From: Escherichia coli
Lineage (GTDB): Bacteria > Pseudomonadota > Gammaproteobacteria > Enterobacterales > Enterobacteriaceae
Reading direction: 5' to 3' (one strand)
Length of the DNA stretch: 64,000 nt
Assembly: GCF_009931435.1 (NCBI RefSeq)
Contig: NZ_CP043414.1
The notes beneath the pieces were generated by a model. The model ran no database searches. It was not told where the DNA came from and worked only from the letters and a program-made list of their open reading frames with translations. Every line of letters begins with the position of its first letter. The first letter of the stretch is position 1. The position numbers and the translations under genes were made by a program. This document shows positions 10,870 to 40,831 of this stretch, piece by piece.

Positions 10870-11394
10870 GTGTTGGATAAACTGCGTTCCCGTATTGTGC
10901 ATTTGGGGCCATCTCTGTTGAGTGTACCGGTAAAACTGACGCCATTTGCGCTAAAACGCCAGGTTCTTGAGCAGGTCTTAAGCTGGCAATTCCGTCAGGC
11001 GCTGGATGATGGCGAGCTGGAGTTTCTTGAAGGCCGCTGGTTAAGTATTCATGTGCGTGATATTGACCTGCAATGGTTTACCTCGGTGGTGAATGGCAAA
11101 CTGGTCGTTAGCCAGAACGCGCAAGCTGATGTGAGTTTTAGTGCCGACGCCAGCGATCTGCTGATGATTGCGGCGCGTAAACAGGATCCGGACACGCTCT
11201 TCTTCCAGCGTCGGCTGGTGATTGAAGGCGATACGGAGCTGGGATTATATGTGAAAAACCTGATGGACGCCATTGAACTGGAGCAAATGCCGAAAGCCTT
11301 ACGCATGATGCTGCTGCAACTGGCGGATTTTGTTGAGGCGGGAATGAAAACCACGCCTGAAACCAAACAGACATCGGTAGGTGAACCATGCTAA
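10870..11394 (+). CDS. ubiT: SCP2-domain lipid-binding protein UbiT (YhbT), GTG start
   Basis: ORF 10846..11394; 174-aa version begins VLDKLRSRIVHLGP; divergent from ubiUV. Confidence 0.8.
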   Translation: MLDKLRSRIVHLGPSLLSVPVKLTPFALKRQVLEQVLSWQFRQALDDGELEFLEGRWLSIHVRDIDLQWFTSVVNGKLVVSQNAQADVSFSADASDLLMIAARKQDPDTLFFQRRLVIEGDTELGLYVKNLMDAIELEQMPKALRMMLLQLADFVEAGMKTTPETKQTSVGEPC

Positions 11395-30490: not shown

Positions 30491-31300
30491 ATGAGTAATA
30501 CCGACGCTTCAGGCGAGAAGCGAGTGACAGGCACCAGCGAGCGACGAGAACAAATCATTCAGCGCCTGCGACAGCAAGGGAGTGTGCAGGTTAACGATCT
30601 GTCGGCATTGTATGGCGTATCTACTGTGACGATCCGCAACGATCTGGCTTTTCTGGAAAAGCAGGGGATCGCTGTGCGGGCCTATGGCGGCGCGTTGATC
30701 TGCGATAGCACGACGCCGTCAGTCGAGCCATCAGTGGAAGATAAAAGCGCGCTGAACACTGCGATGAAACGCAGCGTTGCGAAAGCTGCCGTTGAGTTGA
30801 TTCAGCCAGGTCATCGGGTGATCCTCGATTCCGGGACCACCACGTTTGAGATTGCTCGTCTGATGCGCAAGCACACCGACGTAATTGCGATGACCAATGG
30901 TATGAACGTAGCCAATGCACTGCTGGAAGCAGAAGGCGTTGAACTTCTTATGACCGGCGGGCATCTGCGGCGTCAGTCGCAATCTTTTTACGGCGATCAG
31001 GCTGAACAATCGCTACAAAATTACCACTTTGATATGCTTTTTCTCGGCGTAGATGCGATCGATCTGGAGCGCGGCGTCAGCACGCATAATGAAGATGAAG
31101 CCCGTTTAAACCGTCGGATGTGCGAAGTTGCGGAACGGATCATTGTGGTCACCGATTCCAGTAAGTTCAACCGTTCCAGTTTACATAAGATCATTGATAC
31201 TCAACGTATCGACATGATCATTGTTGATGAAGGCATTCCTGCGGATAGTCTGGAAGGCCTGCGAAAGGCTGGGGTTGAAGTGATTCTGGTCGGGGAGTGA
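30491..31300 (+). CDS. agaR: DeoR-family transcriptional repressor of the aga operons
   Basis: 269 aa; N-terminal HTH (…[17 protein letters not shown]…) and DeoR sugar-phosphate-binding C-domain. Confidence 0.9.
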
Positions 31301-31589
31301 GAAATGGCGCCCGTAGCTCAACACGGATGTGTTCGGCGGGCATTGTTCACTGACCTTTTACAGCCTGTTTTCTGCTCAAATTAGAAACTTCAGCAAAGGT
31401 AATGCAAATGCATTATTAACAGCAGAAAGCGCCAGAACCAACGAAAAAAGAGAGCATGTTTCCCATTTTGCGAGGCGCTTTCCAAATCACCCGCTCAGTC
31501 CCCTCGCGTTGCAGTGCTAAAAGCACTATTTTGCAAATTTGTGACCTTCTTCACTCTCCCAAAAGGCGGTGATCTCACGGTGGGGATCC

Positions 31590-31815
31590 ACTTTCTGCTT
31601 TCGCTTTTCTGCCGTTAGCACTCGCTATTTCGGCATCTCTTCTTTTCACTTTTTCAGTTTGTCATTTTCATTTGCGGTCAACCGAAAGTTCTGGAGTCGA
31701 TTTTTCCAGGTTTCAACGCCGTTGTCGCGTTCACAAATTCACTTCTTTTCTTCTGATGTAATGCATTCAAAAGAAAATGAAAGCTGCAAAATGCAAGAAT
31801 GCAACGAAATACTTT
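31590..31815. promoter_or_regulatory. long leader of the second DeoR gene, rich in TTTC/GAAA repeats (candidate operator array)
   Basis: ctttctgctttcgcttttctgcc, tcttttcactttttcagtttgtcattttcatttgcgg, gaaaatgaaagctg; motif class resembles the aga operators. Confidence 0.4.
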
Positions 31816-32647: not shown

Positions 32648-33559
32648 TCAGGTTGCAAGTTCGATTTGCAGCAACGCCGCGCCTCGTACACCGCTCGTTG
32701 CTCCGTGAATCGCAGAAAATACGCGCGCAGGTTCCAGTCCAGGAAGAAGATAACGCGTCATAGCTTTCGGCAATAACGTGTAAATTTCTTTGAAGTTAGA
32801 CACACCGCCGCCAAGAACAAATGCATCTACGTCGAGAATATGCTGCAACTGTGCCAGCGTACAACCAACCATATCTATCCAGGCGCTAATGGTGGTGATG
32901 GCACTGGGAACGCCACGTTGATGATTTTCTAACAATGTCTCCATAGTGATTTGCTCACCGCTGAAATGCTTATGTAACCAGAGCAAGCCAGGACCGGACT
33001 GGTAGCGTTCCAGGCACCCTTGCAAACCGCAGCCGCATTGTAATTCAGGCAGGTTATAGCGCCGCGTAAATGTCGCCGGGAGCGGTAAATGGCCAAACTC
33101 GCAGGCCATACGGTTACGGCCACGGTACAACTGGCCATCAATAACTAATCCCCCGCCCATACCCGTGCCGATAATCGCGCCAAAGATCCGACTATATTGA
33201 CGAGCTTGATCGGTATGCGCTTCTGATAGGGCGAAGCAGCAGCAGTCATTATCCATTATTACCGGGCGGTTAAGGCGATTTGCCAGATCGGTTAACACCT
33301 GGCGTCCGGTCAGGCAGGGAACGTTAGAAGACAACAGTTTACCGGTGTGCCGATCCATAACGCCGGGCATCCCGATACCTATTTTGCCTTGCGTACCCGT
33401 GGCCCAGTCAGCGGTATCAATCAGAGACACAAATGTGGATAGAAAAAGCGCGTAATCCTGAACAGGCGTAGCTACCCGCTTGCGCCAGCAAATTTGTAAA
33501 TCCTGATCAAAGGCGACTATCTCTGTTTTGGTTCCACCAATATCAACACCGTAAAACAT
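32648..33559 (-). CDS. ROK-family sugar kinase (NagK-like N-acetylhexosamine kinase candidate), 303 aa
   Basis: N-terminal GVDIGGTK ATP motif; ROK zinc motif CGCGLQGCLERY; same length as the NagK family. Confidence 0.8.
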   Translation of the reverse strand: MFYGVDIGGTKTEIVAFDQDLQICWRKRVATPVQDYALFLSTFVSLIDTADWATGTQGKIGIGMPGVMDRHTGKLLSSNVPCLTGRQVLTDLANRLNRPVIMDNDCCCFALSEAHTDQARQYSRIFGAIIGTGMGGGLVIDGQLYRGRNRMACEFGHLPLPATFTRRYNLPELQCGCGLQGCLERYQSGPGLLWLHKHFSGEQITMETLLENHQRGVPSAITTISAWIDMVGCTLAQLQHILDVDAFVLGGGVSNFKEIYTLLPKAMTRYLLPGLEPARVFSAIHGATSGVRGAALLQIELAT

Positions 33560-33577
33560 CGCTCATCTCCTTTGGTT

Positions 33578-34834
33578 TCACAGCACAACCAGGGTATTTT
33601 CCTTGCGAGCGCGTTCGGCGGCAAAGACCATTAAATGACTTTCGAGCGATTCATCTGGTCCTGAAAGGATCATCGCTCGATCGTCAGCCATCACGGCATG
33701 GATAAAGCTGTCCATCAGATAGTAATCACCACCACCGTGCCCTCCCATTTGGGTGTGAGTGCCTGCGTTTTTCTCTTCAACGGTGTAAATAGTTTCCTGG
33801 TCGGTGAGAAAATCAAAACACCGAATGGTGTTGCCATCGCCTTCCAGATAACCTTTCGAACCGAAAACTCGGGTTTTGCGATCCTCCATTTTCGTAAAGG
33901 CTGTCATTGTAAAAGTGACGCTCTGCTGATGCGCAAACTGCATGTTTACCACTTGATGATCAACAACATCGTTATCGCAGCAATAAACACAGCGACCATA
34001 GGGGCCGTCACGCAGGGCCTGACGAATATTCTCTTCAGTAGGATTTGGTGTTAACACGTGGCGAAAGTGAAACGTACATTTATGGGCTTCGCCAGCATAA
34101 ATTTTGCATGCGGACCACGGGCAGGTCGCTTCTGCCTGGCAATCGAGACAGCGTTCGGCTGCGCCTTCAGGTTGGTTTTGTTTTACAAAATGGTTGAGCC
34201 CGCCAAATGAGCTAACGGTTTTACAGTTGTCTCCCATGATGTAGCGGATCCAGTCCAGATCGTGGCAGGACTTTTGTAACAACATAAATGATGATTCAGC
34301 CTCGTTGCGCCAGTTACCACGCACAAAAGAGTGTGCCTGGTGCCAGTAACCGACGGGTTCGAGATGCTGCATACTGATAATGTCGCCAATGATGCCGCTG
34401 TCGAGTAAGGATTTGAGTTTTTGTGTATATCGGGTGTAACGAAGAACGTGTGCGACGGCTAATAAGACATTATTGCGTTTGACGGCATCAATGATAATGC
34501 GGCAATCGTGCTCTGTTGGCGCGAGCGGTTTTTCCAACAGAATGTGATAACCGAGATCGGCAAAAGCGACGGCCGGATCTCTATGCATATTGTCTTGCGT
34601 ACAAATAAGTACAGCATCAGCCATTTTTGGCCGAGCAGCAGCCTCTTTCCAGTTGCTAAAAATATTATCTGTCGGGATCGTATGCCGGGACACAACTTGC
34701 TCGCGGTAAGCCTCTCTAGGTTCAGCAACACCTACCACTTGCATTCTGTCCGGATGCTCAAGGGCATAGCGGGAATATATTTCTCCACGTGCGCCTGCAC
34801 CTATTACTAAAACAGTGACTTTATTTTTACTCAT
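33578..34834 (-). CDS. Gfo/Idh/MocA-family NAD(P)-dependent oxidoreductase with Cys-rich insert
   Basis: N-terminal Rossmann VLVIGAGARG and EKP motif (LLEKPLA); internal Cys cluster CLDCQAEATCPWSACK ... CVYCCD. Confidence 0.75.
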   Translation of the reverse strand: MSKNKVTVLVIGAGARGEIYSRYALEHPDRMQVVGVAEPREAYREQVVSRHTIPTDNIFSNWKEAAARPKMADAVLICTQDNMHRDPAVAFADLGYHILLEKPLAPTEHDCRIIIDAVKRNNVLLAVAHVLRYTRYTQKLKSLLDSGIIGDIISMQHLEPVGYWHQAHSFVRGNWRNEAESSFMLLQKSCHDLDWIRYIMGDNCKTVSSFGGLNHFVKQNQPEGAAERCLDCQAEATCPWSACKIYAGEAHKCTFHFRHVLTPNPTEENIRQALRDGPYGRCVYCCDNDVVDHQVVNMQFAHQQSVTFTMTAFTKMEDRKTRVFGSKGYLEGDGNTIRCFDFLTDQETIYTVEEKNAGTHTQMGGHGGGDYYLMDSFIHAVMADDRAMILSGPDESLESHLMVFAAERARKENTLVVL

Positions 34835-34876
34835 ATAAAGAAATACCTTTCTGATAAATTCATCTTAATTGCTACG

Positions 34877-35635
34877 TTATAAATTACGAAAACTAACAAG
34901 ATGAAATCCGTGTTTTTCAATCGCATATTTGAGTGACGGTGTAGTCAGAACCGTAAGTTCTTCCAGCCGTTGATAGCAGTAACTGCTCGACATTAAGTGG
35001 TTATCTACAAATCCAGGGTGACACATAATTTCCAGCGATTTTTCATCACGTTTTATGGCGCTATCGAGGAGTGATAAAAAAAAGTCTTCTGAAATATTAT
35101 TATCGTAGAAATTACTGCTGAATCCCTCACTACTTTTGGCATCCAGCGAATCGATTTTTTTCTCTCGCAGGACAGAATGGTCTATACGTAATGGTAAATT
35201 TTTCTCACGCGCGAACCGCGCGACAACGGGATAAACCTGCGGGAGCATATGAACGCTGTGATGGCTGTCTAAATGGGTGGGCTCCCGTTTAAATACATCA
35301 ATAAAACGTTGATATTGAGAATTCAGTTCCTGTTCAATTTCACCCGTGTTTAATTGCCCTTGCTCCGCGACATCCCAGATCCATTTACCTAATTGGCCTG
35401 CGCGTACCAGCGAAGGCATATCCGTTAAGGCAGCGCCATAGCTCAAAACAAAATGTAACCCGACGCCGAGCTGTGGGGTTTCGGCACTTAAAGAGGCAGC
35501 ATGATCAATTGCCGGAGCATTCATCATCGCAGTTGTTGAGCGAACGACACCATTTCGTACTGCCTCGATAATTCCATAATTAATACCTTTACTTAGTCCA
35601 AAGTCATCCGCATTCACAATTAATAAGCGTTGCAT
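34877..35635 (-). CDS. YdjC/ChbG-family carbohydrate deacetylase
   Basis: MQRLLIVNADDFGLSKGINYGIIEA... and HLDSHH metal-site motif typical of the ChbG/YdjC family. Confidence 0.85.
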   Translation of the reverse strand: MQRLLIVNADDFGLSKGINYGIIEAVRNGVVRSTTAMMNAPAIDHAASLSAETPQLGVGLHFVLSYGAALTDMPSLVRAGQLGKWIWDVAEQGQLNTGEIEQELNSQYQRFIDVFKREPTHLDSHHSVHMLPQVYPVVARFAREKNLPLRIDHSVLREKKIDSLDAKSSEGFSSNFYDNNISEDFFLSLLDSAIKRDEKSLEIMCHPGFVDNHLMSSSYCYQRLEELTVLTTPSLKYAIEKHGFHLVSFRNL

Positions 35636-35647
35636 AAGGCGTCCTTG

Positions 35648-37000
35648 TTATTGATGAGATTGGGTAAGTTCAGCAATGGTGCTGGAAAATTGAGGCAGAT
35701 GTTTTTTATGGGCAATGATCAGTTCACGTACTAATTTTTCAGCGTCGTTATCCGAGGTCATTAGCGGGTTAAGGCACAGAGCCAGCAGCGTATCGTTATA
35801 GTTACCACTTATTGCCGCCCGGGCTGCCGCGATCTCAAAACATTTGATTGAATGAATGAGCCCCAGTACATTTTCGTCAAAATGAGTGAGACGCGGGTGG
35901 GGGGTAACACCGTTATTCCCCAGAATGCAGGTCATTTCAACGGTCCAGTCTTCAGGGATATTTTTTACACTGCCCTTGTGTGGAATATTAACGTAGTGTT
36001 CTGTTTGCGTGTCATTATAAATTGCATTAATAACGGCACAGGCTGCATCTGAATAATACGCACCACCACGCAGCTCCAGTTCTTCAGGTTTTGTATTTAG
36101 TTCTGGGTCCTTATACAGCTCAAATAATTTTTTCTCTAATGCCTGCACGACTTGTGCACGAACGCCATTTTTATAAAATTCCCCCATCTCAATAGCGAGC
36201 ATTTCTTTATGTTTAAAATAGTAACGTAAGTAAGCACAGGGCAGGAGATTAAGTGCCCGAATTAAATTAGGATTGAAGGTTAAACTGTCAATATTTTTGA
36301 CGGTACTTCCTTCAAGCAAACCTTCAACGACGCCATCGAGCAATTCAGCAAAACGTGATTGTCCATTGACCCATACGTCTTTAAGAAAGACCATATGATT
36401 TAAGCCAAATATGTCTATTGAAAGATCATCGTCCGCGCCAAGTTTTAGGGCATTGCAAACGAAGCTCTTCATCCCAATAGGGACATTACAGACACCGATA
36501 AAACGTTTAAATTGGGTATGGCGGTACACGGCTTCAGTAACCATCCCGGCAGGATTGGTAAAATTAATAATCCAGGCATCAGGGCAAAGTTCCTCAACAT
36601 CTTTGATAATATCAAAAACTACTGGAATGGTTCGTAACCCGTTGAATAAACCGCCCGCGCCATTGGTTTCTTGCCCGAGATATCCCTGACTTAGTGGAAT
36701 CAACTCATCCATTTCCCGAGCTTTTAATTGCCCGACCCGAAATTGTGTGGTGACAAAGTGCGCGCCCTGTAATGCAGCGCGACGGTCAAGTGTTTTCACT
36801 ATTTTTAACGGAATGCCAGCTTTTATCACCATCCGCTGACAAAGGTCGAAAATAATGTCCAGCTTTTCTTTGCCTTCTTCAATATCAACTAACCATAATT
36901 CACTGACCGGTAATTCATCGTAGCGTTTTATGAATCCTTCAAGGAGTTCTGGTGTATAGCTACTGCCACCGCCAATAGTAACGATTTTTAAGTTTTTCAT
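35648..37000 (-). CDS. glycoside hydrolase family 4 NAD+/Mn2+-dependent 6-phospho-glycosidase (ChbF-like), 450 aa
   Basis: N-terminal KIVTIGGGSSYTPEL dinucleotide-binding signature and GH4-type core (…FINFTNPAG…CNVPIGM…). Confidence 0.85.
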   Translation of the reverse strand: MKNLKIVTIGGGSSYTPELLEGFIKRYDELPVSELWLVDIEEGKEKLDIIFDLCQRMVIKAGIPLKIVKTLDRRAALQGAHFVTTQFRVGQLKAREMDELIPLSQGYLGQETNGAGGLFNGLRTIPVVFDIIKDVEELCPDAWIINFTNPAGMVTEAVYRHTQFKRFIGVCNVPIGMKSFVCNALKLGADDDLSIDIFGLNHMVFLKDVWVNGQSRFAELLDGVVEGLLEGSTVKNIDSLTFNPNLIRALNLLPCAYLRYYFKHKEMLAIEMGEFYKNGVRAQVVQALEKKLFELYKDPELNTKPEELELRGGAYYSDAACAVINAIYNDTQTEHYVNIPHKGSVKNIPEDWTVEMTCILGNNGVTPHPRLTHFDENVLGLIHSIKCFEIAAARAAISGNYNDTLLALCLNPLMTSDNDAEKLVRELIIAHKKHLPQFSSTIAELTQSHQ

Positions 37001-37077
37001 GTTACTTCCATACTCAATATTAAATTGACTTGTGATGCCATGGTTTTATCTAAACGCTGGCATGATGAAGTGTGCTA

Positions 37078-38439
37078 TTAAAACTTTAATGCATTGGCAA
37101 TGTCTTCTTCGCTTTCTTGTTTAATTATTTCAACTTGTGCTTTGTTTGAGATAATGACAAAGGGAAGATAAACCATTGTGGCAACACCTAAGTTAAAGAG
37201 CGCCAGGAGTAATCCAGCAATGCTACCATTCGAGCTAAAGAACGCATTGAGTCCAGGAGGCATGGTCCAGGGGGCAATATTTGTTGATGGCGGAATAATA
37301 CCCATGTTATAGGCGATTAAGGTAATCCCGGCGAGAATAGGTTGAATCATCACAAACGGGATTAACATAATGGGGTTCATAATGATCGGCAAACCAAATA
37401 AAATAGGTTCGTTGATATTAAAGATACCAGAAGGTAACGCTAATTTAGCAACCTGACGATAATCTTCCCGGCGTGACGCAATGAAAATGGCGAAAATGAG
37501 TCCCAGCGTTGCCCCTGTTCCACCGAGGAACACGTAAGCGTCAAGCATTGGCCCGGTCCAGAAATGGAAGGTTTTTCCTGCTTCCAGTGCCGCTTGTACT
37601 GAACCATATTGTGTATAGGTGGCGATATTCTCCAGTCCCCACGGACCCAACGTGCTGCTTTGCAACGCGGTTAATACTAAGCCGCCGTGGATACCAAAGA
37701 ACCATAACAGGGAATTAAAGACAACGAATGTCCAGCCAACAATACCGCTCATTGACGTTAATGGCGTAGCCAGTGAGGTGATAATGACCTGATGGAAATT
37801 GGTGCCATATATCGACAATATCCCAGACAAACTACCCATAATTAACAGGATGATAAACCCGGGCACCATTGCTGAGAATGAGCGTGATACTGCGGTCGGA
37901 ACACTCGCGGGCAACCGAATCACCCAATTGCGGCGGATAATAAAAGCGAAAATTTCCGCTACAACTAATCCAATGATCATACCAGACAGAATATTGGCGC
38001 CGCCTAACCAGTTTGCACCAATGACATTAGCGGTTTCTCCTGCCTTGAAGGGGGTGACAGTCATAAACGCTGCGACAGAGAGTAAGCCAACGGATAACGA
38101 ATCAACTTTCCGTTCTTCGGCCAACCCCATCCCAATAAAAAAGGGGGTCATGAGTGACATAATGCCCAGCGTGCCATGATAAGCACTGTCACCGACGACG
38201 GTGAAGGCGCTTAAGGTTTTTATGGTCGATGGTTCCAGTCGGACGCCTAATGAATAAAAAAAGGAGCCTTCGCCAAAATCTAAAAAAACGCTATTAATGA
38301 GGACAAATAACGTACCGGCTAACGTTAATGGCATCATACGGATAAAACCGTTTTTTATTGCATTGACGTGAGGTTGTTTCCCTAATTTAACTGCAAAAGG
38401 AAGAATGAGTTTTTCAAGTAACGCCATCACTCCGGGCAT
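37078..38439 (-). CDS. PTS lactose/cellobiose-family EIIC component (ChbC-like)
   Basis: 453-aa polytopic membrane ORF with the lactose/cellobiose-family EIIC motif …[14 protein letters not shown]…. Confidence 0.85.
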
Positions 38440-38508
38440 AAAAATATCCTTATATACCGATTAATGTATCACTGCGACTTTGGTTTTATTAATATCCTGT
38501 TGCTATGG

Positions 38509-38826
38509 TTACTTTTGCTCTTTTTTTATTATGGCGATAGCTGATTTTAGAACACCTAAGCCATCAATTTTTCCATATAACATTGAATCAATAACTTCCA
38601 CTGGCTTTCCTGGTAATAAGCTTTGGATCTCTGATTGCATGTAAGCAATTTGAGGTCCCAATAATATAACATCGGCTTCCGGCCCTTTCTCTGCGGCAAC
38701 AGATTCGGAGAATGCTTCGATAATTACTGGCACATCATATTTTATCGCCTGCACTTTCATTTTTGACACCAGCAGTGATGTTGACATTCCCGCTGAACAA
38801 AATAAGTATATTTTTTTCTTTTCCAT
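38509..38826 (-). CDS. PTS lactose/cellobiose-family EIIB component (ChbB-like), 105 aa
   Basis: ORF 38509..39042; start set at [23 protein letters not shown] (phospho-Cys motif), preceded by GGAG. Confidence 0.8.
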
Positions 38827-39059
38827 AGGGACTCCAGATATATTACGTAATAATATATTTGTCATGCCATGAATGGCATATGAGGCGACTTTAATTAAAA
38901 AGGCACGGATGTTTATATTGATTTCCTGAATGTCGTCTTTTGGTATTAATCTCAAAAATTTCAGGAGCCATTGAATAATCTGGTTTATAGGATTGAATGT
39001 CAAGAGAGTGAAATTGTGGGCGTGTTGTAATAAAAATAGCACGGCTTTCGGTAGGTTTC

Positions 39060-39165
39060 TTTTTTAGCGGAATGAAAAGTACAGGCAAAATGGTAATTGA
39101 ATAAATTAACGTTTTTTCAATAGATTACGTTTTTTTCTGCCTACAGGAATGAAAAAAACAACAAT
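39060..39165 (-). promoter_or_regulatory. putative promoter/operator region of the EIIB-led operon with two GGAATGAAAA repeats
   Basis: gcggaatgaaaagtacagg and acaggaatgaaaaaaacaac about 75 bp apart in AT-rich DNA upstream of the EIIB start. Confidence 0.35.
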
Positions 39166-39211
39166 CTAAAAATACTTTAGATATGTGAGAGTTATCACTT
39201 ACTTTTCGTGG

Positions 39212-39245
39212 GGAAAACGGGGAAACACAGTCTCCCCGTTTTCCG
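39212..39245 (-). terminator. garD rho-independent terminator
   Basis: aaacgggga...tccccgttt hairpin immediately downstream of garD stop. Confidence 0.65.
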
Positions 39246-39259
39246 TTCATGCAAGGCCG

Positions 39260-40831
39260 TCAAGTCACCGGTGCCGGGTTAAACACCGCCAGCTGGTTAT
39301 GCAGTCCCCATTGATCTGAGAAGGTTTTCTTCTTCCCGCTGGCGACGTCGAGAATAAAATGGAACAATTTCCAGCCCACCTCTTCAATAGTTTCTTCGCC
39401 GGTAGCGATGGTGCCCGCATTAATATCCATTAAATCAAACCAGCGGTTCGCCAGCTCGGTGCGGGTCGCCATTTTAATGACGGGTACCGCCATCAGGCCG
39501 TACGGCGTGCCGCGACCGGTCGTAAACACTTGCACGGTAATCCCTGATGCCACCTGTTGCGTGCCACAGACAAAATCGCTGGCTGGCGTCGCGGCGTAAA
39601 TTAATCCGCGTTTAGTCGGGCGTTGACCGGGCGATAGCACTTCAACAATTGCGCTTTTACCCGATTTAGCAATGGAGCCGAGAGCCTTCTCCACTACGTT
39701 TGCCAGACCGCCTTTCTTGTTGCCCGGAGAAGGGTTGGCGCTGCGGTCGGTTTTTCCCATATTGAGATAGTTATCGTACCACTCCATCTCCTCCAGCAGC
39801 CGTTTGCCGACCTCTTCGTTCACTGCGCGTGGTGTCAGCAGATGGATCGCGTCACGCACTTCTGTGACTTCTGAAAACATCACCGTTGCGCCGCAGCGCA
39901 CCAGTAGATCAGACGCATACCCAACCGCCGGGTTTGCCGTTACGCCAGAAAACGCATCGCTGCCACCGCACTGCATGCCGACAACCAGTTCTGAAGCCGG
40001 ACAGGTTTCTCGCTGACGTTGATTCAGTTTTTGTAGATGGCGTTCGGCGACCTGCAAAATATCCTCGACCATGGACTGAAAACCGACATGCTTTTCATCC
40101 TGCAAACTGACAATGCTGGCGCTTTCTACTGGAATAGCTTGCACATCATCCGTTCCAGTCAGCAGGCGCTCAGGCTGCAACTTTTCACAACCCAGACCAA
40201 TCACCATTACTTCGCCGCCAAAGTTAGGGTTCAGCGAAATATTGTGAATGGTACGAATAGGCACAACTGCCGCCGGTGCGTTAATCGCCACGCCACAACC
40301 GTACAAATGATTCAGCCCCACCACGCCATCGACGTTCGGGTATTTCGGTAGCAGATCGCGTTCAATGATTTTTACTACATAGTCCACCACGCCTGCCACA
40401 CAGTGGACGCTGGTGGTGATGCCGAGCAGGTTTTTGGTGCCCACGCTGCCATCGGCATTGCGATAGCCCTCAAAGGTGTATCCTTCCAGTGGCGGTAAGG
40501 GGGCCGGGACTTTAGTTGCCAGTGGCAGCGTGTGTAACGGTGGCGCTTCCGGTAGTACAACCATTGATTCGTCGATCCAGCTTCCGCGTGGGATTGCGCG
40601 CACGGCGTAACCAATCACTTCACCATAACGAATAATTTCACCATTAGCCGGAATGTCCAGCAATGCGACTTTATGCCCCTGGGGAATATGTTCAATTAAT
40701 TCCAGCCCATCCGGAAAACGCGTTCCTGCTTTCAGGCCATTATCATTAACAATAATTGCCACATTATCTGTGTCGTGAACTTTTATATAAAACGCAGTTG
40801 GCGTTTCTTGTCTGATTTCGATGTTGGCCAT
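39260..40831 (-). CDS. garD: galactarate dehydratase (L-threo-3-deoxy-hexulosonate-forming)
   Basis: 523 aa; [28 protein letters not shown]...; divergent from garPLRK. Confidence 0.9.

Follow-up and report, generated by a model that had tools for sequence, protein, structure and literature searches.

Two exact copies of a 10-mer, GGAATGAAAA, lie upstream of a IIB-led operon in a rare sugar island of Escherichia, and on balance we favour reading them as weak auxiliary, partly degenerate boxes of a putative AgaR-type multi-box operator array. An earlier note on this DNA had proposed the pair as operator half-sites of the DeoR-family regulator encoded at the locus, an idea that holds in outline but not in its particulars: the copies have invariant cores and a DeoR-family regulator to go with them, as expected of such sites, and “half-sites” is the wrong description of elements 77 bp apart. 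Each copy looks instead like the upstream arm of its own inverted pair, TTTTC ... GAAA. The repeat is real and statistically unremarkable, and the strongest candidate for an operator is a neighbouring block, GAAACCTACCGAAAG, that the earlier note did not flag.

The island, its operon and its regulator

The window, by which we mean the whole stretch of 64,000 nucleotides analysed, is an Escherichia chromosome segment from the aga-gar-tdc region. Between agaR (30491-31300, plus strand) and garD (39260-40831, minus strand) it holds an accessory island that is carried by 3 of 5426 complete E. coli genomes. The minus strand of the island encodes a ROK kinase, a Gfo/Idh/MocA oxidoreductase, a ChbG-like deacetylase, a GH4 phospho-glycosidase, a ChbC-like IIC and a IIB, which the operon arranges in the order IIB-IIC-GH4-ChbG-Gfo-ROK. 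The island PTS (32648-38826) has IIB and IIC but lacks IIA and ChbR; its closest relatives are canonical chbBCARFG operons, and it must borrow IIA from elsewhere, the source presumably being chromosomal ChbA. In the Gfo-ROK part of the island (32648-34834), the 418-aa Gfo/Idh/MocA protein has relatives, at 40-57%, in Lentisphaerota, Paenibacillus and other Bacillota, and the ROK kinase is NagK-like yet stays under the model cut-off (306 vs 380 bits). Because the regulator is of the AgaR type and the aga cluster adjoins, an amino-sugar glycoside may, speculatively, enter the GalNAc pathway via the island.

The assignment of the locus regulator to the DeoR family in the earlier note holds up. 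The protein carries HTH_DeoR and DeoRC domains (Pfam) and passes the equivalog model NCBIfam NF040755, “transcriptional repressor AgaR”, scoring 365 bits where 260 are required. With the AgaR encoded next door it shares 44% identity and an almost identical recognition helix.

With the Gfo/Idh/MocA protein as query, species-representative genomes yielded relatives of the island. Three Citrobacter genomes and another Escherichia species have the same regulator (88-93% identical), ROK kinase and Gfo gene, and a more distant ABC-type clade, whose regulator is 64% identical, comprises Cedecea and two Enterobacterales. PTS-type operons are those of the window, L001 and L002; the ABC-type ones are L003-L006 and L040-L043. 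A metagenome scan with a pattern that leaves out the 10-mer boxes picked up only four loci, all of them Citrobacter-like and ABC-type; further PTS-type loci were absent. Within the PTS type, strain GF4-3 (L002) and the window have IIC, GH4 and regulator proteins that are 98-99% identical, while Gfo and ChbG are only 88-89% and the promoter 86% identical, a mosaic divergence that suggests recombination inside the island. GF4-3 also carries a prlF-yhaV toxin-antitoxin pair between agaR and the island (L002 4150-4949), in which yhaV is a pseudogene; the pair is absent from the window (31301-31560) and from strain R32_14_1F.

Start codon, promoter and leader

The interval flagged around the repeat, 39043-39259, had been bounded by a IIB start at 39042, which is the GTG of the longest open reading frame. 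The real start codon is the ATG at 38826, with GGAG just before it, and the resulting product of 105 aa agrees with the RefSeq annotation in relatives and with ChbB homologues of 105-106 aa. As IIB starts there, the true intergenic region is 38827-39259, and the copies lie 243-329 bp upstream of the start codon. The predicted sigma-70 promoter falls outside the flagged interval (Table 1). Alone among promoter-like sites it keeps its aligned position in the window, L003 and L006, and its -10 is invariant at 6 of 6 positions and its -35 at 5 of 6; the -35 is consensus and the -10 (GATTAT) weak. With a transcription start predicted near 38968, the copies are not in the promoter, where they had been placed, and lie about 100 and 180 bp upstream of that start.

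Downstream of the start, the part of the 5' leader that is specific to the PTS version matches only the three island carriers among E. coli genomes, and it has no counterpart elsewhere in E. coli, the native chb promoter included. A perfect palindrome, ATGCCATTCATGGCAT (38864-38879, minus strand), lies in this leader and is nearly conserved in GF4-3. It shares bases with another promoter-like sequence, ATGCCA-16-TATATT (38879-38852), and may be the target of a different regulator or mark an additional promoter. At the other end of the intergenic region a stable hairpin is probably the garD terminator, parting garD from the operon control region. It has only a short T run, and Citrobacter has a canonical bidirectional terminator in its place. 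Searched against Rfam, 38400-39700 showed nothing but a chance match below threshold, on this hairpin.

Table 1. Elements of the operon control region and the regulator leader, with coordinates in the window; distances such as -110 are counted from the predicted transcription start.
Feature	Coordinates	Strand	Remarks
Regulator leader, TTTTCATT-N8-ACCGAAAG	31665..31688	+	counterpart of the proximal copy plus ACCGAAAG; ACCGAAAG part at 31681-31688
Regulator leader, AAAAGAAAATGAAAG, likely autoregulatory box	31769..31783	+	just downstream of the -10-like TGATGTAAT; includes a CTTTCATTT match
AgaR-like DeoR-family regulator, 256 aa	31833..32603	+	convergent with the operon; HTH_DeoR and DeoRC domains
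IIB gene	38509..38826	-	Pfam PTS_IIB; RefSeq annotation of relatives; about 80% identity to ChbB proteins
5' leader part unique to the PTS version	38827..38955	-	homology to ABC-type promoters stops near 38955, about +13
Predicted sigma-70 promoter, TTGACA (39003-38998)-17-GATTAT (38980-38975)	38975..39003	-	10/12 match; outside the flagged interval
Invariant island CAGATTATTC	38982-38973	-	alignment of five lineages
Invariant island TTGAC	39003-38999	-	alignment of five lineages
GAAACCTACCGAAAG block	39045..39059	-	best conserved in the region, 14/15 columns invariant; about -91 to -77
Invariant islands GAAACC and ACCGAAAG	39059-39045	-	alignment of five lineages
Invariant island TAAAA	39066-39062	-	alignment of five lineages
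Proximal GGAATGAAAA copy	39069..39078	-	exact match; about -110 to -101; invariant core TTTTC (39078-39074)
Invariant TGAAA, possible inverted partner of the distal box	39119-39115	-	5/5 columns invariant though flanks diverged
Distal GGAATGAAAA copy	39146..39155	-	exact match; about -187 to -178; invariant core TTTTTC (39156-39151)
CRP-like palindrome GTGATAACTCTCAC	39185..39198	-	most upstream conserved element; centred at about -223
Invariant island AGTGAT	39199-39194	-	alignment of five lineages
Hairpin just after the garD stop codon	39212..39244	-	fold -25.1 kcal/mol, z = -3.6; no shuffle folds as well

An unremarkable repeat with conserved cores

GGAATGAAAA does occur exactly twice on the plus strand of the flagged interval, in exact copies 77 bp apart from start to start (the earlier note gave about 75 bp); on the minus strand, which is that of the operon, it reads TTTTCATTCC. 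A third copy, at 11341, lies within the ubiT coding sequence. With its flanks the repeat extends to 15 nt, of which 13 are identical. An exact direct repeat of at least 10 bp arises in 114 of 2000 dinucleotide shuffles of the flagged interval (5.7%) and in 350 of 2000 shuffles of the true intergenic region (17.5%), where G+C is 35-36%. The exact 10-bp repeat is within chance expectation and alone carries little weight. The acagg noted beside each copy does adjoin both, on opposite sides: it is 3' of the proximal copy and 5' of the distal one, which it overlaps. As part of a motif it fails, being invariant at none of its five columns in either copy across lineages. The distal copy is also the right arm of a perfect 9-nt inverted repeat, GTTTTTTTC-N13-GAAAAAAAC (39129-39159, partner arm 39129-39137), and the left arm of this is unconserved outside the PTS-type lineage, including in Citrobacter.

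Conservation across the island relatives singles out a smaller unit. The control region is homologous between PTS-type and ABC-type operons, with a pairwise identity of 56-61%, and 41% of the 241 shared columns are invariant across five lineages. The stretch from the distal to the proximal box shows no indels in any sequence, and the 77-bp spacing is kept. Invariant columns make up 7 of 10 in the proximal 10-mer and 6 of 10 in the distal one, against the background of 41%, and all of them are in the TTTTC cores; in the ABC-type promoters of Citrobacter and the other Escherichia, TTTTC(A/G) is the sole invariant part of both copies. The 10-mer itself is not a conserved unit, since the exact repeat is specific to this lineage. 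At the proximal position the sequence is AAAACGAAAA in Citrobacter and L006, AGAACGAAAA in GF4-3 and GGAATGAAAA in the window, the flank running from AAAAC (Citrobacter) through AGAAC (GF4-3) to GGAAT (window), and the variation in the box is A to G at the R position of AgaR-type boxes (TTTTCATT to TTTTCGTT). Each of the three substitutions that turn AAAAC into GGAAT in the proximal box raised its identity to the distal copy, which could reflect coincidence, selection or micro-conversion. A further box, overlapping the -35, reads CATTC in the window vs CTTTC in the ABC-type promoters.

Two neighbouring elements are conserved along with the cores. The GAAACCTACCGAAAG block, which on its sequence is the strongest operator candidate, reads CTTTCGGTAGGTTTC on the plus strand, that is, two (C/G)TTTC boxes 10 bp apart. 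The CRP-like palindrome, which resembles TGTGA-N6-TCACA, is one of three of the form GTGA-N6-TCAC in the 64-kb window, and it is kept as AGTGAT..TC(A/G)CA in all relatives, including L005 with its different upstream context. Its centre is 223.5-226.5 bp upstream of the only promoter conserved among relatives, which is not an activating distance (-41.5, -61.5, -72.5 and so on), and in six relatives there is no conserved -10 at class I/II distance that would mark a CRP-dependent promoter near it. Two of the three palindromes lie in the two regulatory regions of the island (39185-39198 and 31541-31554), each about 222 bp upstream of a predicted start; such a distance, which shifts by 3 bp among relatives, exceeds that of ordinary CRP activation.

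Recurrence at the regulator gene and in other lineages

A likeness to elements in the leader of the regulator gene had also been proposed, and it is confirmed. The 8-mer AATGAAAA/TTTTCATT is present there at 31665-31672 and is again followed by ACCGAAAG, in the arrangement TTTTCATT-N8-ACCGAAAG where the operon promoter has TTTTCATT-N18-ACCGAAAG; the two spacings are 10 bp, one helical turn, apart. The leader holds two more conserved elements. One is AAAAGAAAATGAAAG, kept as AAAA(G/C)AAAA(T/C)GAAAG in all relatives, with AAATGAAAG at 31775-31783 after the -10-like element, and the other is TCTTTTCA(C/T)TTTTTC(A/G)G. Searching for the composite TTTC(A/G)TT-N(4-30)-CGAAAG retrieves five instances in the window vs 0.31 expected, a count that none of 100 shuffles reaches; the operon promoter, the regulator leader and the agaS promoter account for three of them. 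The composite is also present in the operon promoter and the regulator leader of the Cedecea clade, and ACCGAAAG recurs in the leaders of that clade. Its operon promoter has an inverted repeat, CCTTTCG-N12-CGAAAGG, and an upstream box, GCTTTTC(A/G)TCTTT, that varies at the same A/G position.

A motif model (expectation-maximisation, EM, with a fixed site fraction) was trained independently of the operon promoter, on the regulator leaders and the Cedecea regions. Unrelated seeds, too, led it to AAAnyGAAAg. The window copies score 0.45-3.5 bits on it, within the top 0.7-1.2% of all window 10-mers. At the proximal position AAAACGAAAA (Citrobacter and L006) scores 11.5 bits, in the top 0.01%, and is the top model match in the Citrobacter promoter; AGAACGAAAA (GF4-3) scores 8.9 and the window 3.5. 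The distal position runs from 11.0 bits in L006 and 9.3 in L005 to 3.9 in L003 and 2.1 in the window. The DNA-binding domain of the regulator (residues 1-60) is identical in the window, GF4-3 and L006. Given the 11.5 bits in Citrobacter with an unchanged DNA-binding domain, the window copies are therefore, to judge by sequence, degenerate versions of better boxes and do not represent a retuned specificity. Matches to the model are not enriched in the window promoter (2 vs 1.8 expected, P = 0.5), and the enrichment in single relatives is weak (P = 0.02-0.25) because A/T-rich DNA matches the motif easily. Simple box patterns in the regulatory region are at best weakly enriched, with 5 vs 2.4 expected for TTTC[AG] (P = 0.08) and 4 vs 1.4 expected for [CT]TTTC[AG] (P = 0.04).

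E. coli AgaR reportedly recognises a 24-mer consensus of three tandem pentamers, WRMMTTTCRTTTYRTTTYNYTTKK. Applied to the window, this consensus finds five sites with at most 3 mismatches where 0.27 are expected (24927, 25005, 30274, 30356 and 30451), all in the agaS and agaZ/agaR control regions, and because all five fall in aga promoters the consensus can be considered validated. No site in the island comes within 3 mismatches of the 24-mer. Within the island the ACCGAAAG block (39042-39065) comes closest, at 5 mismatches.

A putative operator array and its alternatives

From gene content and from the conservation and recurrence of the elements, all of them observed, we infer the following arrangement. 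The putative array would span about 110 bp upstream of the promoter of the IIB-led operon. Each copy would supply a TTTTC(A/G) box on the operon strand that faces an inverted GAAA box downstream, the partners being GAAAC and CCGAAAG of the GAAACCTACCGAAAG block for the proximal copy and the invariant TGAAA for the distal one (Table 1). An oligomer of the AgaR-like repressor would bind the boxes cooperatively and hold the promoter down until an amino-sugar phosphate made by the pathway releases it, and the same repressor probably represses its own gene through the equivalent boxes in its leader. The invariant ACCGAAAG block would be the primary site. In this lineage the 10-mer copies would have moved away from the family motif, and their contribution to affinity is probably small.

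Could the repeat be a chance product of A/T-rich intergenic DNA, with only the ACCGAAAG block and the core promoter mattering? The shuffles, of which 6-18% hold a repeat at least as long, allow it, as do the poor scores on the independent model and the lack of enrichment of model matches; the repeat is exact only by virtue of its GGAAT flank, which is lineage-specific, and the acagg is nowhere invariant. However, the TTTTC cores are invariant at both positions in five lineages whose flanks have diverged, with a spacing of 77 bp free of indels, and the same 8-mer is paired with ACCGAAAG once more in the regulator leader, so that we regard this explanation as rather unlikely. Less likely again is a structural role for the conserved T/A runs, either as phased A-tracts that bend the DNA or as contacts for H-NS, Fis or the RNA polymerase alpha C-terminal domain. 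The region is certainly A/T-rich, at 35-36% G+C, and its runs of at least five A or T (near 39155, 39134, 39114, 39063 and 39034) follow one another at about 21, 20, 51 and 30 bp, near whole helical turns, a spacing kept without indels. What is invariant, however, is the C that ends the T runs and the G that starts the A runs rather than run length, several runs are broken in relatives, and the invariant ACCGAAAG block is not an A-tract; we consider this reading very improbable.

Every conserved box is found beyond -75, counted upstream from the predicted start, an unusual place for repression by simple occlusion, and this speaks against the array. The boxes might also be bound in some other way. 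The DeoR family includes an activator, FucR. An upstream activator role for the paralogue would suit boxes that are all upstream of the -35 and a -10 as weak as GATTAT, although the consensus -35 does not obviously need an activator and the regulator passes the model for the AgaR repressor. Alternatively the neighbouring AgaR could cross-regulate the island, its recognition helix being almost identical to that of the paralogue and agaR adjoining the island in every Escherichia and Citrobacter locus. Against such cross-control, none of the island sites is within 3 mismatches of the AgaR 24-mer, as all five aga sites are, and the boxes also occur in the Cedecea clade, where no agaR adjoins. Taken together, binding of either of these kinds seems unlikely, and the AgaR-type array bound by the repressor of the island is the reading that we retain.

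Comparison with characterised systems

DeoR and GlpR exert multi-operator repression by looping. The proposed array is like theirs in having several operators spread over more than 100 bp and a regulator from a family that forms oligomers, and unlike theirs in that no operator was found overlapping the core promoter in the window. The canonical chbBCARFG operon is controlled by NagC, ChbR and CRP. The IIB, IIC, GH4 and ChbG genes of the island are chb-like, IIB being about 80% identical to ChbB, and their nearest non-Escherichia context is the canonical chb operon. Unlike that operon, the island lacks chbA (IIA) and chbR, and its promoter is of the AgaR type, common to the ABC-type islands.

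The closest parallel is with AgaR itself. Both systems pair a DeoR-family repressor that has nearly the same recognition helix with several short TTTC(A/G)/CTTTC boxes, which lie upstream of the start and vary in orientation, and in both autoregulation is likely and a CRP-like site is nearby. They differ in that the canonical AgaR site consists of three tandem pentamers whereas the island boxes are dispersed, 10-33 bp apart, and in that the window copies read TTTTC where AgaR boxes read CTTTC. AgaR binds several tandem repeats (PMC5018945) and still represses when placed at -61 (PMC8667592). TagR, a DeoR-family regulator of E. coli Nissle, has two operators, tagO1 and tagO2, which are predicted only and are CTTTCAAAATGAAAG-like (PMC12226905). 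In tagO1, CTTTCAAAATGAAAGTAAA, the contained AAAATGAAAG is nearly the leader box GAAAATGAAAG of the island regulator and resembles GGAATGAAAAG; the TagR operators are accompanied by a CRP site, as here, but overlap the start site in a tight palindrome, whereas the island boxes are far upstream and widely spaced (PMC12226905). These published statements on AgaR and TagR (PMC5018945; PMC8667592; PMC12226905) fit the AgaR-type array reading.

One control region, two cassettes

The comparison of relatives also reveals a cassette swap. Window positions 34835-38955 correspond to 5690-9991 of L003, within a common setting of promoter (to about +13), regulator, Gfo and ROK. The swapped part is the chb-like PTS in the window and an ABC transporter in Citrobacter and Escherichia sp. 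MOD1-EC7003, whose cassette of a binding protein, two permeases and an ATPase stands in place of IIB-IIC-GH4-ChbG. Homology runs from the CRP-like site to about 38955, beyond which the leaders are unrelated, and resumes at the Gfo start codon; because of these bounds, one control region can be said to drive two alternative cassettes.

As a tentative history, possible though doubtful, a chb-derived PTS cassette without IIA and ChbR might have been swapped in behind a portable AgaR-type promoter-operator module, after which the proximal box drifted through AAAAC-AGAAC-GGAAT to an exact copy of the distal one. On this history regulation of the PTS version may be looser, or homogenisation may have made its boxes alike. 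One prediction of the analysis is that the PTS-type promoter should be less tightly repressed than the ABC-type promoter of Citrobacter.

Implications

The operator arrangement is most likely of an ordinary bacterial kind and the cassette swap the more interesting by-product, and what is known of DeoR-family regulation is unchanged by the finding. Its practical value lies in better annotation of the IIB start codon, the promoter and the likely primary operator, ACCGAAAG. If confirmed, the array would give the operator grammar of an uncharacterised AgaR-like repressor of a rare sugar island, and the cassette swap offers a clean natural example of one promoter-operator-regulator module serving two uptake systems.
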